Shown piece after piece: positions 1 to 5,921 of a stretch of 5,921 nt of DNA. The notes below the pieces were generated by a model, which ran no database searches, had not been told where the DNA came from, and was given only the letters and a program-made list of their open reading frames with translations. The first letter of the stretch is position 1. Each line of letters begins with the position of its first letter. The stretch lies in IMG/VR virus record IMGVR_UViG_3300045988_005608, positions 1-5,921 of that record, one strand, 5' to 3'. A program made the translations under genes and the position numbers. The stretch is from a virus.

Positions 1-99
1 AACGAAGACAAAAAGGAGTAAACCATAATGCACAAAACATGGAATGTACGTGACCAGACCAAAGAAGCAAATTGGAACCATGGACGAAACAAAAAAAAG
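1..99. repeat. Terminal direct repeat, copy A. Identical to 5823..5921, so this is the assembly overlap of a circular genome with a 5,822-nt unit.
   Basis: Base-by-base comparison: 1..99 (aacgaagacaaaaaggagtaaacc...acaaaaaaaag) matches 5823..5921 exactly, right up to the window edge. Confidence 0.95.
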
Positions 100-135
100 G
101 AAAGAAAGGTACACAACAATGGCACGACATCGTAA
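28..135 (+). CDS. Hypothetical 35-aa basic peptide (MHKTWNVRDQTKEANWNHGRNKKKERKVHNNGTTS). It is too short to appear in the supplied ORF track.
   Basis: Hand translation. ATG at 28 lies 9 nt after AGGAG (14..18), the best SD/start pairing in this stretch. Stop TAA at 133..135. No recognisable motif, and it overlaps the start of the packaging-protein ORF. Confidence 0.25.
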   Translation: MHKTWNVRDQTKEANWNHGRNKKKERKVHNNGTTS

Positions 136-2630: not shown

Positions 2631-3467
2631 ATGAGTGTATTATCAGGACTCTTAACAGGACTAAACGTAGCGGGAAACGTAGCGAATACGGTTGGAACAA
2701 TTGCCGGCGCGGCAAAAGACGTTGCTGGAATATTCGGCGGATGGGGTCAAACCGGTAACAGCCAAAGTAGCGGAGGCAGCACAAGCGAAGGCGGCGGCCA
2801 CTCAGAAAGCGGAAGTCACTCGGGCACGAACGTACAACAGGTAAACGACTGGCTAAAACAGGCATACACATACCAAGGGCAAGAAGCTGCCATGCAAGGT
2901 AAATACAACAGTCAAAGCATGTTAAAGCAGATGGGTTACAACACCTTACAAGCAATCATGCAAGGCGTATATAACCACATTGAAAACAGCGTAGCAATGA
3001 ACTACAACAGTGCAGAAGCACTAGCCAACCGCGAATGGCAAGAGCACATGAGCAATACAGCATATCAAAGAGCCGTTGAAGATATGAAAAAAGCTGGACT
3101 GAATCCAATTCTAGCCTTTGCAAACGGTGGAGCAAGCACGCCGGGCGGTAGCGCGGGAACAATCAGCGGTGCAAGTATGGGACTAGCAAGCAGCAGCGCA
3201 CTAGGAGTAAGCCGAAGCGGTGGATTTGTACCGAACGCATACGAAAGCAATAGCTGGAGTAAAAGCGACTGGTACAACGCAGCACAAAGTTGGCAGCAGA
3301 TGCTCAGTAGTACGCAAATGACGCCTTACGGATTAGCGAAGGCTTTAACAAACGTTGGAAACGATACCGGAAAAGCAATAGAAAAAGCAACAAAATCGCA
3401 AAGCAAAACGCACAAGAGCAAAAGCGGAGCAGAACATGGCGGCGGCGGAGGTGAAATCAAAAAATGA
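2631..3467 (+). CDS. VP2: Minor capsid / DNA pilot protein VP2, 278 aa.
   Basis: The motif REWQEHMSNTAYQRAVEDMKKAGLNPILAF is the conserved core I recognise from gokushovirus VP2 proteins. Other features: Gly-rich hydrophobic N-terminus, Gly/Ser low-complexity linker, and position between VP1 and VP4. An in-frame TAA at 2628..2630 fixes 2631 as the first possible start. Confidence 0.9.
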   Translation: MSVLSGLLTGLNVAGNVANTVGTIAGAAKDVAGIFGGWGQTGNSQSSGGSTSEGGGHSESGSHSGTNVQQVNDWLKQAYTYQGQEAAMQGKYNSQSMLKQMGYNTLQAIMQGVYNHIENSVAMNYNSAEALANREWQEHMSNTAYQRAVEDMKKAGLNPILAFANGGASTPGGSAGTISGASMGLASSSALGVSRSGGFVPNAYESNSWSKSDWYNAAQSWQQMLSSTQMTPYGLAKALTNVGNDTGKAIEKATKSQSKTHKSKSGAEHGGGGGEIKK

Positions 3468-4483
3468 GTTGTTACAAGCCATTAATAAGGCTGTACAACC
3501 CGAACGATAAAAGCATCAGCGGGAGGGTATATTCACTCTCCCGCTTTTCTCAGTTAGCGGGAAAGCAGCTCAAATATGAAGACCTGATGTACAGAAAAGA
3601 TGTCATGTTGATACCATGCGGACAGTGCATCGGGTGCAGAATCAGACAAAGAGAGGACTGGACAACACGAATAGAATTAGAAGCACGAGACTATCCAAGA
3701 GAAGAAATTTGGTTTATCACATTAACTTATGACGATAATCATGTACCGGGCATGATAGTAAACACAGGCGAAATCATGCGAAAAGTACAATACGTCTGGA
3801 AACCGGGAGAGAAGCGCCCAGAAAGCGTCCAAACTTTGCTATATACTGACATTCAAAAGTTCTTAAAACGCCTCAGAAAGGCTTATAGGGGCAAATTACG
3901 CTATTTCGTAGCGGGAGAATACGGAGAACAGACGGCAAGACCACACTTCCATATGATTCTATATGGATGGAGACCAACAGACCTAGAGCACCTATACAAG
4001 ATACAGCACAACGGATATTTCACAAGTAAATGGTTAGCAAACCTGTGGGGCATGGGTCAAATACAGATAGCGCAAGCAGTACCTGAAACATATAGATATG
4101 TTGCGGGATACGTTACAAAAAAAATGTACGAAATTGACGGTCAAAAAGCAAACGCATACTACGAACTAGGGCAGCAAAAACCTTTTGCATGTATGAGCCT
4201 TAAACCGGGCTTAGGAGACCACTATTACCAAGAACACAAAGAAGAAATCTGGAGACAAGGCTACATCCAATGCACAAACGGCAAACACGCACAAATTCCA
4301 CGCTATTATGAAAAAATGATGGAAACTGAAAACCCACAAAGATTGTGGAGAATTAAACAGAACAGACAAGCAGCAGCCATAGCGGAGAACCGACTTAAGT
4401 ATGAAAATGCAGACTTTGCAGAGCAATGTAAGACAAAAGAAAGGGTGATAAAGAAGCAAATGAAGAAGAGAGGGACACTTTAA
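3464..4483 (+). CDS. VP4: Rolling-circle replication initiation protein VP4 (phiX174 A-like HUH endonuclease), 339 aa.
   Basis: ATGA start/stop overlap with VP2. GGAGGTG (3447..3453) lies upstream. Motif I FITLTY (3713..3730), HUH motif HFH (3944..3952) and the paired-tyrosine motif YRYVAGYVTKK (4091..4123) are present, plus a CGQCIGCR Cys cluster. Confidence 0.95.
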   Translation: MSCYKPLIRLYNPNDKSISGRVYSLSRFSQLAGKQLKYEDLMYRKDVMLIPCGQCIGCRIRQREDWTTRIELEARDYPREEIWFITLTYDDNHVPGMIVNTGEIMRKVQYVWKPGEKRPESVQTLLYTDIQKFLKRLRKAYRGKLRYFVAGEYGEQTARPHFHMILYGWRPTDLEHLYKIQHNGYFTSKWLANLWGMGQIQIAQAVPETYRYVAGYVTKKMYEIDGQKANAYYELGQQKPFACMSLKPGLGDHYYQEHKEEIWRQGYIQCTNGKHAQIPRYYEKMMETENPQRLWRIKQNRQAAAIAENRLKYENADFAEQCKTKERVIKKQMKKRGTL

Positions 4484-4501
4484 CAGTGTCATGGTGTCAC
4501 C

Positions 4502-4535
4502 TAGCCCAGTACCTATCAAGTAAGGTACTGGGCTA
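4502..4535 (+). other. Perfect 13-bp stem-loop (TAGCCCAGTACCT / AGGTACTGGGCTA, 8-nt loop ATCAAGTA) 19 nt after the VP4 stop. Could be a terminator or an ssDNA origin/priming structure.
   Basis: All 13 pairs from 4502:4535 to 4514:4523 are Watson-Crick. It is followed by TTGTCGTTT. A smaller 6-bp hairpin GACACT/AGTGTC (4474..4490) encloses the VP4 stop codon. Confidence 0.6.
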
Positions 4536-4594
4536 TTGTCGTTTAAAGGCTCCATGTATCAGCCTATTCAGTCTATCAAATAGCTATACTTTAT

Positions 4595-4639
4595 CGCGCG
4601 TGCGCACGCGCGCGAAGCGCGCACGCGCGCACGCGCGCA
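4595..4639. repeat. G/C-only alternating purine-pyrimidine block: ACGCGCGC x3 plus an 18-nt perfect palindrome.
   Basis: CGCGCGTGCGCACGCGCG (4595..4612) equals its own reverse complement. ACGCGCGC occurs at 4606, 4623 and 4631. Strict Pu/Py alternation holds for 4595..4614 and 4617..4639. GCGCGTGCGC (4596..4605) is complementary to both 4619..4628 and 4627..4636. Confidence 0.9.
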
Positions 4640-4653
4640 GCTCTTCAGCGCTA

Positions 4654-4683
4654 TTGTTCGCAAGCTCACAAGCGCTGTATAAT
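4654..4683 (+). promoter_or_regulatory. Weak candidate sigma70-type promoter (TTGTTC, 18-nt spacer, TATAAT).
   Basis: Perfect -10 TATAAT at 4678..4683. The -35 is poor, matching only TTG at 4654..4656. No credible ORF follows within 390 nt. Confidence 0.3.
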
Positions 4684-4777
4684 ATATAACTTGTTGTAGG
4701 AGTAGTAGTAGAGGCTGTGGAAAAGTTGATAAGTGCTAAAATTTAACGTTAAGACGTAAATAAAAAGCAAAAAACAA

Positions 4778-4816
4778 TGTTGAAAGTTTTGTTGAAAACT
4801 TGTTGAATTGTTGAAA
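4778..4816 (+). repeat. Iteron cluster A: four direct copies of TGTTGAA(A/T).
   Basis: Copies start at 4778, 4790, 4801 (TGTTGAAT) and 4809, giving spacings of 12, 11 and 8 nt. Confidence 0.9.
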
Positions 4817-4817
4817 G

Positions 4818-4834
4818 TTCGTCAAAATGACGAA
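4818..4834. repeat. Short inverted repeat/hairpin TTCGTCA-AAA-TGACGAA between the two iteron clusters.
   Basis: 4818..4824 is the reverse complement of 4828..4834, with a 3-nt loop. Confidence 0.7.
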
Positions 4835-4852
4835 AACCTTTGTGCAACTTTA

Positions 4853-4889
4853 TGTTGAAAACCTGTTGAAAGTGTTGAAAGTGTTGAAA
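4853..4889 (+). repeat. Iteron cluster B: four direct copies of TGTTGAAA.
   Basis: Copies start at 4853, 4864, 4873 and 4882, giving spacings of 11, 9 and 9 nt. Orientation is the same as cluster A. Confidence 0.9.
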
Positions 4890-4993
4890 ACGCGCACAGC
4901 GCTAACAAGGAATGGATTCAGCCGAATTCCGCTGCGCTCCATACGGCAAGGCGCTAAAGCGCCGTTCAAAACAAAGGAGCAAAACCGAGTTGC

Positions 4994-5003
4994 TGATATA
5001 TCA
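4994..5003. promoter_or_regulatory. 10-nt perfect AT-rich palindrome TGATATATCA about 20 nt upstream of the P1 -35 box. Possible operator.
   Basis: The sequence is self-complementary. It is flanked by GTTG (4989..4992), whose complement CAAC (5002..5005) overlaps the last 2 nt of the palindrome. Confidence 0.3.
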
Positions 5004-5023
5004 ACTAAAATTTCAAAAAAGGC

Positions 5024-5052
5024 TTGACTTTTTTTCGAGAATATGATAGAAT
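5024..5052 (+). promoter_or_regulatory. Promoter P1: TTGACT, 17-nt spacer, TAGAAT with an extended -10 TG and an A-rich upstream tract.
   Basis: -35 at 5024..5029, TG at 5044..5045, -10 at 5047..5052. The upstream AAAATTTCAAAAAA resembles an UP element. It sits about 28 nt before the ATG at 5080. Confidence 0.75.
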
Positions 5053-5079
5053 ATAATCACAGAAAGGAAGGTGCTCAAA

Positions 5080-5262
5080 ATGATGCACAAATACGAGTTA
5101 AGAAGCTGGAACAATGACGACACGATGACCACGGTATTAAAAATCAATGATACACCCAAAAACGCAAAAAAGCGGGCAAGAGAATACGCAAACGATCACA
5201 AGGGAATCTATTCCTTGTGCAGAGTCGAAGAAGTAAAAATATACTCCACTGAAAAAGAATAA
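5080..5262 (+). CDS. Hypothetical 60-aa hydrophilic protein of unknown function.
   Basis: ATG at 5080 lies 6 nt after the long SD AAGGAAGGTG (5064..5073). The track's GTG at 5071 lies inside that SD and is unlikely. The gene has its own promoter (P1) and its own terminator. No motif recognised and no TM segment. Confidence 0.7.
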   Translation: MMHKYELRSWNNDDTMTTVLKINDTPKNAKKRAREYANDHKGIYSLCRVEEVKIYSTEKE

Positions 5263-5267
5263 AAAGC

Positions 5268-5297
5268 AAACTCCCGGTTGACACCCGGGAGTTTTTA
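5268..5297 (+). terminator. Rho-independent terminator: 10-bp stem AAACTCCCGG/CCGGGAGTTT, 7-nt loop, T-run.
   Basis: Pairs 5268:5294 through 5277:5285, loop 5278..5284, Ts at 5292..5296. It starts 6 nt after the ORF stop at 5260..5262. Confidence 0.85.
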
Positions 5298-5306
5298 TTA
5301 TATAAT
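5278..5306 (+). promoter_or_regulatory. Promoter P2: perfect consensus TTGACA, 17-nt spacer, TATAAT.
   Basis: TTGACA at 5278..5283, spacer 5284..5300 (17 nt), TATAAT at 5301..5306. It lies about 20 nt upstream of the peptidase ATG (5327), which has the SD AAGGGGGG (5313..5320). Confidence 0.8.
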
Positions 5307-5326
5307 ACAGACAAGGGGGGATAAAC

Positions 5327-5719
5327 ATGATTAAAAGCTATATCATGGACACAGATGGAAACGTAAATCTGGCAAAACACTTCAAAGTAAAAGAATTTGC
5401 TTGCAAAGACGGCAGCCAAGTAGTATTCATAGACGACTACCTATACACCATTCTGGATATCTTACGAAAAAAGCTAGGAAAGCCGGTGATCATCAACAGC
5501 GGATACAGGACACCAGAGTGGAACAAAAAATGCGGTGGAGCAAAATACAGCTATCACATGCGCGGTATGGCAGCAGACATCCGAGTCAATGGCATGAGTG
5601 CAAAAGAGCTTGCCAACAAACTGAATGAAATCGTCCCGGATGAATGCGGCATTATCGTATACAACACCTGGGTGCACTTTGATGTGCGAAGCGGGAAAAA
5701 ATACAGAAAGGGGGTATAA
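5327..5719 (+). CDS. Zinc D,D- or L,D-peptidase of the M15 family (Peptidase_M15A / M15_3-like). Putative endolysin, 130 aa.
   Basis: FKVKEFACKDG...PVIINSGYRTPEWNKKCGGAKYSYHMRGMAADI...WVHFDV matches the SGYR..N/..S.H..G.A.D/..H.D zinc-ligand architecture of M15A cell-wall peptidases. No N-terminal hydrophobic signal is present. Confidence 0.9.
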   Translation: MIKSYIMDTDGNVNLAKHFKVKEFACKDGSQVVFIDDYLYTILDILRKKLGKPVIINSGYRTPEWNKKCGGAKYSYHMRGMAADIRVNGMSAKELANKLNEIVPDECGIIVYNTWVHFDVRSGKKYRKGV

Positions 5720-5720
5720 A

Positions 5721-5843
5721 ATGGCACTGATTTCCATTAAGGACGTCAAGCAAGCAATCCGCATTATGATGCAGATTCTCGAAAAACTCGACGAGATCTA
5801 TCATGCGCTGCACGATAGCATCAACGAAGACAAAAAGGAGTAA
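5721..5843 (+). CDS. Hypothetical 40-aa amphipathic helical peptide (MALISIKDVKQAIRIMMQILEKLDEIYHALHDSINEDKKE). It crosses into the terminal repeat, and its tail is duplicated at 1..21.
   Basis: ATG at 5721 lies 1 nt after the peptidase stop and 6 nt after AAAGGGGG (5707..5714). The track's longer version from 5625 overlaps the peptidase gene out of frame and is unlikely. Confidence 0.5.
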   Translation: MALISIKDVKQAIRIMMQILEKLDEIYHALHDSINEDKKE

Positions 5844-5921
5844 ACCATAATGCACAAAACATGGAATGTACGTGACCAGACCAAAGAAGCAAATTGGAAC
5901 CATGGACGAAACAAAAAAAAG
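5823..5921. repeat. Terminal direct repeat, copy B (identical to 1..99).
   Basis: Exact 99/99 identity with the window start. Confidence 0.95.

Follow-up and report, generated by a model that had tools for sequence, protein, structure and literature searches.

A conserved M15-family peptidase gene of mammalian-gut gokushoviruses, and the lack of a recognisable export device in the genomes that carry it

Gokushoviruses rank with the most abundant phages in the mammalian gut, and the clade with which we are concerned here is uncultured. Its peptidase is the only recognisable lysis-type gene that it carries, and the best clue to its host. In phiX174, also a member of the Microviridae, the lysis function is provided by E, a small overprinted membrane protein that inhibits MraY and blocks wall synthesis. 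Peptidases of the Pfam family PF08291 were found by Roux et al. 2012 (PMC3394797) in five human-gut Gokushovirinae and six Alpavirinae; the same study showed that the microviral peptidases are of horizontal origin, with four of the five gokushoviral ones grouping with Faecalibacterium, and it already proposed an endolysin role for the gut gokushoviral enzyme. Further mention of the gokushoviral gene is made in PMC7062461 and PMC9239249, the latter of which (Kirchberger et al. 2022) counts peptidases as one of two accessory gene types of microviruses and documents their recombination between microvirus families. M15 peptidases have been reported from the marine Occultatumvirinae as well.

For Gp7 of Ebor (Tainavirinae), a microvirus of Rhodobacter capsulatus, degradation of peptidoglycan has been verified biochemically (PMC11980548), the first such case in an ssDNA phage and the only one among microviral enzymes of this kind. 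Gp7 may be likened to the peptidase studied here by its size (146 versus 130 amino acids) and by the function predicted for the latter. Ebor, however, belongs to another microvirus subfamily and has a Gram-negative host, and it encodes a predicted membrane protein of 45 amino acids, Gp1, that is absent from this clade.

Outside the microviruses, signal-less endolysins that are exported independently of a holin have precedents in LysA of mycobacteriophage Ms6 with its chaperone Gp1, and in the lysin of pneumococcal phage SV1. Both are tailed phages that still encode holins.

The nearest described counterpart of our locus is the M15_3 peptidase of human-gut Gokushovirinae (PMC3394797; KX513868, KX513876, KX513877, KT264791). 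It is the same gene, its protein being 65-88% identical to the one described here, with the same Pfam family, the same affinity to Faecalibacterium and the Clostridiales, and the same proposed endolysin role; there is no difference in kind. That is, the peptidase gene is already known, and our genome is one more member of a well-populated and published group. What is added here is negative evidence for an export device at the scale of the clade, the fixed slot in which the gene lies, the uncoupling of the gene from the phylogeny of the core genes, a comparison of three groups in which the microviral peptidase is set against its homologues in tailed phages and in cells, and the rejection of those partners that would have been the obvious ones.

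The peptidase gene and its product

The window, by which we mean the whole stretch of 5,921 nt that was analysed, is a complete circular gokushovirus genome; its length includes a 99-nt terminal overlap, which leaves a genome of about 5,822 nt. All of the recognisable genes lie on the + strand. In the order of the window they are a VP8-like basic protein (122-241), VP5 (262-501; PF20577), the VP3 scaffold (374-886; PF09675), the VP1 or F capsid protein (889-2592; PF02305, 443.8 bits), the VP2 DNA pilot protein (2631-3467; PHROG 8742, E 1e-119) and the VP4 Rep (3464-4483; PF23343). A non-coding control region of 587 nt (4484-5070) leads from Rep to the accessory slot, where we find a soluble accessory ORF of 60 amino acids (5080-5262, + strand; also listed as 5071-5262 with a GTG start), the M15 peptidase ORF of 130 amino acids, ATG to TAA (5327-5719, + strand), and the ORF of an amphipathic helical protein of 40 amino acids (5721-5843, + strand). 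The window thus carries VP1, VP2, VP3, VP4 and VP5 on one strand of a circular molecule, and it is a gokushovirus-type microvirus genome. The nearest genome in GenBank is Gokushovirus WZ-2015a (KT264791, from human faeces), at 85% identity over 77% of the genome.

An earlier note on this DNA had assigned the ORF at 5327-5719 to the M15-family zinc peptidases from its motifs, and profile searches bear this out. In Pfam, the product matches Peptidase_M15_3 (PF08291) far above the cut-off (E 2.2e-24, 86.1 bits versus 23.2), with positions 1-108 of the 108 in the profile aligned to residues 17-119; a second match, to PF05951, reaches 32.5 bits versus a cut-off of 27. Among the PHROG families it matches PHROG 894, ‘endolysin’, with E 3.9e-44. 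The motifs are located at S58-G-Y-R61, S75-Y-H77-MRGMAA-D84 and V116-H117-F-D119, with H77, D84 and H117 as the predicted Zn ligands and with S58, R61, S75 and D119 conserved besides. All of these residues are invariant in an alignment of 47 sequences that joins the microviral clade to a tailed-phage/prophage clade only 41-48% identical to the query; a loss of the Zn ligands was looked for in this alignment and was not found. The composite motif is complete in all 68 of the full-length relatives, and single-nucleotide codon differences in the gene give a synonymous to nonsynonymous ratio of 2.0. The peptidase gene is under purifying selection.

By sequence, the closest solved structure is 1LBU, the Zn D-Ala-D-Ala carboxypeptidase of Streptomyces albus G (M15A), with E 7e-5 for the single sequence and 3e-8 for the profile. 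An AlphaFold2 model of the peptidase, of moderate confidence (pLDDT 79.7, pTM 0.74), again has 1LBU as its first match in the PDB (TM 0.54, probability 1.00), followed by VanY, the N-domain of Sonic hedgehog (Shh-N), the Ply500 endolysin, LdcB, LysECD7 and ChiX; all of these belong to the clan MD fold class, and none is matched at E <= 1e-3. The sole match in NCBIfam is MepK (NF053624), an LD-endopeptidase of E. coli. At 44.1 bits versus an equivalog cut-off of 185, the protein is no equivalog of MepK, and with the threshold missed an exact housekeeping function is not assignable. Reading the bond specificity off the homologues was likewise rejected, since MepK falls so far under its cut-off and the identity to 1LBU, taken over 90 columns, amounts to only 29%. 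Both enzymes share the S-x-H-x6-D Zn motif with the microviral protein, but they are exported cellular enzymes, unlike the signal-less microviral peptidase. Because of the family matches, the invariant residues, the intact motif and 1LBU as the closest structure, the product of the ORF is, as predicted from its sequence, a bona fide clan-MD/LAS Zn peptidoglycan peptidase (MEROPS M15, Peptidase_M15_3).

The earlier note had regarded such genes as sporadic and uncommon in microviruses. This view is not borne out: the gene was described in 2012 (PMC3394797), dozens of gut microviruses in GenBank carry it, many of them with the annotation ‘peptidase M15’, and it is present in 68 of the 68 full-length relatives analysed, which were chosen by peptidase similarity. 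In a search with the protein, 1,895 clusters (at 90% identity) were obtained, of which the best 120 are 80-92% identical to the query, and many of those 120 lie on contigs of 5.3-6.2 kb. IMG/VR holds 254 peptidase loci. Since the peptidase is universal in the clade, ‘uncommon’ understates its distribution. As for the accompanying remark on the lack of a characterised gokushovirus lysis gene, it appears to hold for this clade to date.

Search for an export device

We call a segment TM-grade if a 19-residue window has a mean Kyte-Doolittle (KD) score of at least 1.6. The peptidase has no hydrophobic N-terminus, the highest 19-residue KD mean anywhere in the protein being 0.74, and the KD scan found no signal peptide, SAR or TM segment in it. 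N-terminally extended isoforms that might carry a signal or SAR segment were considered and rejected; the longer proteins called in some relatives are hydrophilic read-throughs.

On the + strand of the window, no ORF of at least 20 amino acids exceeds the KD of 1.14 that is reached by the Gly/Ala-rich N-terminus of VP2, the most hydrophobic segment of that strand. Nor does any + strand frame contain a TM-grade stop-free window when start codons are ignored and overlapping frames are included: the count is 0. We found on this strand neither a holin-type small TM protein alongside the putative endolysin, nor an E-type amurin with an N-terminal TM helix, overprinted frames included. Compared with phiX174 and its E protein, there is here no + strand TM ORF in any frame, and the candidate effector would be a muralytic enzyme. 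Among the 68 relatives, only 2 have a TM-grade + strand ORF, and these ORFs are tiny and unshared. The lack of an export device holds across the whole clade. It had been claimed that no holin, signal peptide or amurin-like ORF was visible, and that no TM segment was present apart from the N-terminus of VP2; both statements are upheld on the + strand, the former now, but for the two unshared ORFs, among the 68 relatives as well, and the question of how the enzyme reaches the murein, which the note had raised, applies to the whole clade. In about half of the 68 relatives the N-terminus of VP2 is again the most hydrophobic segment, with KD 1.4-1.55, and we regard it, by inference only, as a candidate membrane permeabiliser.

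The non-microviral homologues present a different picture. Three isolated Faecalibacterium tailed phages, FP_Toutatis (AUV56799.1), FP_oengus (AUV56575.1) and Aster (XAI97609.1), encode single-domain M15_3 proteins of 137-138 amino acids that are 42-44% identical to the peptidase and are annotated as endolysin or peptidase. Their Zn ligands and conserved residues are identical to those of the microviral protein, which lacks a 7-residue loop that the tailed-phage endolysins possess. These genes lie after the tail genes, in lysis cassettes with TM/holin proteins, and in 3 of the 3 phages TM proteins (KD 2.4-2.6) are encoded within two genes of the homologue, whereas the microviral gene has no such neighbour. 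At bacterial loci, a strongly hydrophobic small ORF occurs within 1.5 kb in 19 of 26 cases. The closest cellular homologues (L084, L086, L090 and L127, from MAGs of Lachnospiraceae/Clostridia, at 46-51% identity) have N-terminal signal-peptide-like segments, and that of L127 has a dockerin-like C-terminus as well. The question is thereby sharpened: an enzyme occurs in every one of 68 genomes without a shared export device, as against the holin-like neighbours or signal peptides of its homologues. With the contrast sharpened in this way, the release route is therefore testable with a small synthetic genome, such as has been made for EC6098 (PMC7062461).

The accessory slot, its promoters and the origin of the gene

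Within the non-coding region, a perfect hairpin of 13 bp lies at 4502-4535 and is followed by a CG-rich palindrome at 4595-4637; some ten TGTTGAAA repeats occupy 4778-4890. An apparent ‘ORF’ at 4827-5027 was rejected as a gene, since it is conserved repeat DNA that is open on both strands; in one relative its frame continues uninterrupted into that of the peptidase. What we call the resident promoter-like site, TTGACT-17-TAGAAT with a TG extension (5024-5052, + strand, 10/12), lies where the region ends, and its hexamers are found at the same place in a peptidase-less relative, L131.

Nine unrelated classes of gene were found upstream of the peptidase, while 29 of the 68 relatives have no gene there but only the non-coding region. 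The 60-aa ORF of the window, which has no family match in Pfam, PHROG or NCBIfam, represents one of these classes and is the upstream neighbour in 23 of the 68; eight other classes occur elsewhere. A small partner gene like that of Ms6 was looked for upstream of the microviral peptidase in the 68 relatives and was not found. We therefore reject a Gp1-like upstream chaperone gene, as there is no conserved neighbour that could be one.

A second promoter-like site, of the sigma-70 type, lies 20 nt upstream of the peptidase ATG (TTGACA-17-TATAAT, 5278-5306, + strand) and is the sole 12/12 site in the window. It is preceded and overlapped by a terminator-like hairpin at the 3' side of the 60-aa ORF (5268-5294, + strand), with a 10-bp stem, a 7-nt loop and then a T-run (-15.9 kcal/mol, z = -3.9). 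The -35 hexamer of the promoter is inside the loop of this hairpin, a feature that was overlooked in the earlier note. Because the -35 hexamer forms the loop of a stable hairpin with a T-run, the element at 5268-5306 looks like a promoter joined to a putative terminator of the 60-aa ORF. Three relatives (L003, L007 and L012) have the element as well, and in L007 the stem shows a compensatory change from A-U to G-C. No match near threshold was found in Rfam, the best being caiA over the hairpin (E 0.7, 25 bits versus a gathering score of 55.5). A Shine-Dalgarno-like purine run, AGACAAGGGG (5309-5318, + strand), followed by GG at 5319-5320, stands 6-8 nt upstream of the peptidase ATG, and a comparable purine run, AAAGGGGG, precedes the 40-aa ORF (repeat D7).

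The perfect consensus of this promoter had been taken to suggest a module that is recently acquired or separately regulated. The consensus itself stands, at 12/12, but the conclusion drawn from it is not supported: a promoter-like site of at least 11/12 occurs within 200 nt upstream of the peptidase in only 25 of the 68 relatives, and in several unrelated contexts. In other relatives the peptidase follows directly after an upstream ORF, with its Shine-Dalgarno sequence at or inside the end of that ORF. Further, no terminator-like site was found on the + strand from the peptidase to the end of VP1 (5294 round the circle to 2603). Because no such site separates the peptidase from VP1, the promoter at 5278-5306 may equally drive the downstream structural genes.

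The 40-aa ORF is found in 68 of the 68 relatives. It starts 1 nt after the peptidase stop codon here, and 1-3 nt after it in 37 of them. That it is coding is seen in its variable columns, which number 13/6/27 by codon position, and in its synonymous and nonsynonymous differences (1840:353). An amphipathic helix (muH 0.70) is predicted for the protein, which is acidic, with a net charge of -2, and is not TM. The same ORF also occurs in the peptidase-less gokushoviruses KT264799, MG945136, MG945157 and MG945423. We therefore regard it as a gene of the lineage rather than a dedicated partner, and its role as an obligate partner of the peptidase is rejected.

Small soluble ORFs of other kinds occupy the slot in these four genomes, from the resident promoter up to the 40-aa gene, the sole TM-like mini-ORF there being one of 24 amino acids in KT264799. 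The genomes L129-L132, which have the 40-aa gene and the promoter of the intergenic region (IGR) without the peptidase, contain no TM ORFs save one candidate of 24 amino acids. It follows that a peptidase-independent lysis function may exist in the wider lineage, and that the enzyme could be auxiliary. The peptidase-less genomes are, however, only about 47-59% identical to the carriers in VP1 and VP4. Their origin by recent loss, which would nest them among the carriers, finds no support in VP4, which puts them further out: 0 of 67 carriers are nearer to these genomes than they are to the window. The corresponding figure for VP1 is 27 of 67. These genomes show that the wider lineage can apparently do without the peptidase, a point that does not extend to the close relatives.

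The earlier description of the gene as recently acquired is also not supported by its composition. With GC 0.43, GC3 0.52 and T3 0.15, the gene is like the others of the genome, and recent acquisition is rejected because both base composition and codon-position composition match the rest; the gene also lies in a fixed slot and is shuffled among gokushoviruses. Among relatives picked by peptidase similarity, the pairwise identity of the peptidase is almost unrelated to that of VP1, VP2 or VP4 (rho 0.05-0.09), while the pairwise identities of VP1, VP2 and VP4 are correlated with one another (rho 0.80-0.82). The match in composition, the variety of promoter contexts and the lack of correlation with the core genes together indicate that the peptidase is probably an old and well-adapted cassette, which recombines among gokushoviruses; they do not point to a recent import.

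Its affinities suggest, weakly, that the host may be a gut member of the Clostridia, and Roux et al. (PMC3394797) had speculated likewise. Peptidase similarity is the only basis of this assignment, which is weak because homologues of 42-47% identity are found also in phages of Gram-negative bacteria, namely those of Vibrio, Klebsiella and Salmonella.

Proposed lysis role and possible routes of release

We consider it probable that the peptidase is an active, cytoplasmic, single-domain Zn2+ enzyme that serves this mammalian-gut gokushovirus clade as an endolysin-type lysis effector and is released without a holin. What our analysis shows is the family, the intact catalytic residues, purifying selection, presence throughout the clade, the lack of TM ORFs, and the export devices of the non-microviral homologues; what we infer is the enzymatic activity, the lysis role, the co-transcription, the Clostridial host and the route of release. 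The lysis role is supported by homology to the tailed-phage endolysins, by Gp7 of Ebor as a biochemical precedent, and by the proposal already published for this gene family. The catalytic domain would have come from a pool that Clostridia (Lachnospiraceae, Oscillospiraceae, Faecalibacterium) have in common with their tailed phages. Its acquisition would lie long in the past, and its composition would by now have adapted. The gene would occupy a fixed accessory slot, reaching from the non-coding region to the conserved 40-aa gene, and recombination would move it from one gokushovirus to another. In the window, transcription probably proceeds from the promoter at 5278-5306 and takes in, besides the peptidase, the 40-aa ORF, the VP8-like gene, VP5, VP3 and VP1. 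The enzyme would appear late in infection as a cytoplasmic protein, probably along with the structural proteins. Upon gaining access to the wall, the peptidase would cut the peptide part of the host peptidoglycan, and so cause or complete lysis.

Access to the wall would be holin-free, because neither a holin nor an E-like membrane protein is encoded, nor any signal peptide or SAR domain. It might be gained through membrane damage by another viral product (of those from the + strand, VP2 alone has a membrane-seeking segment), through host-dependent export, or through a primary lysis function that breaks the membrane first. Most likely, the integrity of the membrane would first be compromised by some other viral or host function. 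In its furthest-reaching form, the proposal would be that this very abundant clade lyses its probably Clostridial host by means of a signal-less endolysin without any virus-encoded membrane protein. We put this forward only tentatively, and would not expect it to hold on present evidence; such a route could involve VP2 permeabilising the membrane late, host-dependent export, or a contribution from the 40-aa amphipathic protein. If true, it would add to the release routes so far described for ssDNA phages a new, holin-independent one.

The evidence must also be weighed against other roles for the enzyme. It may be that primary lysis is achieved by another function, either the activity of a non-membrane protein antibiotic, residing in a structural protein or in a small soluble one, or membrane damage by the pilot protein, and that the peptidase speeds lysis up or widens its range, so as to include, for instance, slow-growing cells that do not lyse when wall synthesis is blocked. 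A non-membrane protein antibiotic has an analogue in the A2 maturation protein of Qbeta, which inhibits MurA. Gokushoviruses generally lack an E-like gene and mostly lack a peptidase, and still lyse (PMC7062461); slot, promoter and 40-aa gene all occur in L129-L132, where the peptidase is absent; and, given the nine classes of upstream neighbour, the slot behaves as an accessory position. Yet the presence of the peptidase in all of the clade relatives, combined with purifying selection, suggests more than a dispensable extra, and no candidate primary lysis protein was found in the genome, so that we think an auxiliary role rather unlikely. Still less do we favour an enzyme of entry, small virion-borne amounts of which would open the peptidoglycan locally during DNA delivery, as do the hydrolases associated with the virions of tailed phages. 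Such an enzyme would need no export device and would be useful against a thick Gram-positive wall; the peptidase gene heads the block of structural genes, and Gp7 of Ebor was detected by LC-MS/MS in trace amounts in purified virions (PMC11980548). That detection, however, may reflect contamination, the closest tailed-phage homologues lie in lysis cassettes and not among virion genes, and the bare catalytic domain of 130 amino acids has neither a structural-protein fusion nor a capsid-binding extension. The T=1 capsid, moreover, has little spare room.

Export or lysis might also be accounted for by a holin or amurin hidden on the - strand. Many hydrophobic ORFs occur on that strand, and the 63-aa ORF 5328..5137 has the genome maximum of KD 2.82; it is antisense to the peptidase region and adjoins it on the upstream side. 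To our knowledge, the genes of characterised microviruses are expressed from one strand only. The - strand has 332 TM-grade windows versus 0 on the + strand, and it is 36% T; its hydrophobicity is thus an effect of T-rich composition. Roux 2012 did report one complementary-strand ORF beside a peptidase (PMC3394797), but in 26 of the 68 relatives the antisense frame of the peptidase gene breaks off early, and the ORF 5328..5137 is detectable in only 5 of 80 relatives. We reject this ORF as a holin, and find a hidden - strand lysis gene of any kind very improbable. That the peptidase is a degenerate, non-catalytic remnant, or a moron with a non-lytic function such as remodelling of the host wall, is scarcely credible. 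Nothing specific favours it beyond the missed MepK threshold, while all of the residues for catalysis and Zn binding are unchanged between two clades that are only 41-48% identical, the motif is intact in every relative, and synonymous changes outnumber nonsynonymous ones twofold.

Whatever its route of release, the bare domain of 130 amino acids is a compact candidate lysin against gut Clostridia.

Divergence and origin of the peptidase

In the comparison of the window with the relative loci, picked by peptidase similarity (L001-L080), pairwise identity of the peptidase has a median of 0.81 and a minimum of 0.68. The corresponding minima for the capsid protein VP1, the pilot protein VP2 and the replication protein VP4 lie between 0.29 and 0.37, and identity in these core genes is uncoupled from identity in the peptidase. 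Since peptidases are at least 68% identical even between genomes whose capsids are 33% identical, the sequence comparison implies either that the peptidase is exchanged as a cassette or that it is under much stronger constraint.

Among cellular proteins, those closest to the microviral peptidase are multidomain homologues with a signal peptide, encoded by Lachnospiraceae and Clostridia MAGs (L127, L084, L086 and L090). The homologue in L127 (6767-7609) has a dockerin-like C-terminal repeat and adjoins a ParA-like gene, not a phage lysis cassette; that in L084 is an ORF of 1,334 aa, containing 6955-7326.

Upstream of the peptidase, at 5268-5306 on the + strand, the -35 hexamer of a sigma-70-type promoter with a perfect consensus match forms the loop of a terminator-like hairpin. 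This composite element is also found in three relatives (L003, L007 and L012), with one compensatory change in the stem of the L007 copy. Promoter use and hairpin formation could be mutually exclusive here.

Small genes around the peptidase slot

Downstream of the peptidase, an acidic, amphipathic-helix ORF of 40 aa (5721-5843, + strand; MALISIKDVKQAIRIMMQILEKLDEIYHALHDSINEDKKE) is kept in every one of the 68 relatives, as well as in four gokushoviruses that have no peptidase. Purifying selection on it is strong (1840 synonymous versus 353 nonsynonymous differences), and a family search with it returned no match. In most of the 31 GenBank records with this ORF, the matched stretch has no annotated feature. 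This small gene belongs to the core of the lineage.

In the peptidase-less genome KT264799.1 (L129), we observed a 24-aa ORF at 3972-4046 on the + strand (MVDVIQSIAIMLLSIAVIINAKRR; mean Kyte-Doolittle hydropathy 2.42, basic C-terminus), directly 3' of an 11/12 promoter and at the slot position taken by the peptidase in the window. It was not found in the other three peptidase-less genomes (L130-L132); it is possibly a mini membrane protein or a lysis candidate.

Over its first ~14 codons, and no further, the 35-aa ORF at 5850-5921, continuing at 28-135 (+ strand; MHKTWNVRDQTKEA...), matches a 75-aa ORF (MYKTWNVRDQTKEALEELL...) found in 42 of the 68 relatives. The window seems to retain this accessory gene only as a truncated remnant. 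For the ORF of the basic, VP8/J-like DNA-binding protein (44-241, + strand), the match to PHROG 10695 and the conservation in relatives are limited to residues 27-65 (MARHRKV...GGIRL); its true start is probably the ATG at 122.

The non-coding region after Rep

Within the large non-coding region 3' of Rep (4484-5070), a perfect 13-bp hairpin (-24.4 kcal/mol, z = -5.75) lies at 4502-4535. A CG-rich palindrome follows at 4595-4637, and then about ten copies of a TGTTGAAA repeat at 4778-4890, which are kept across relatives. These elements could serve as an origin or in regulation. The apparent ORF at 4827-5027 is mimicry by the repeats.
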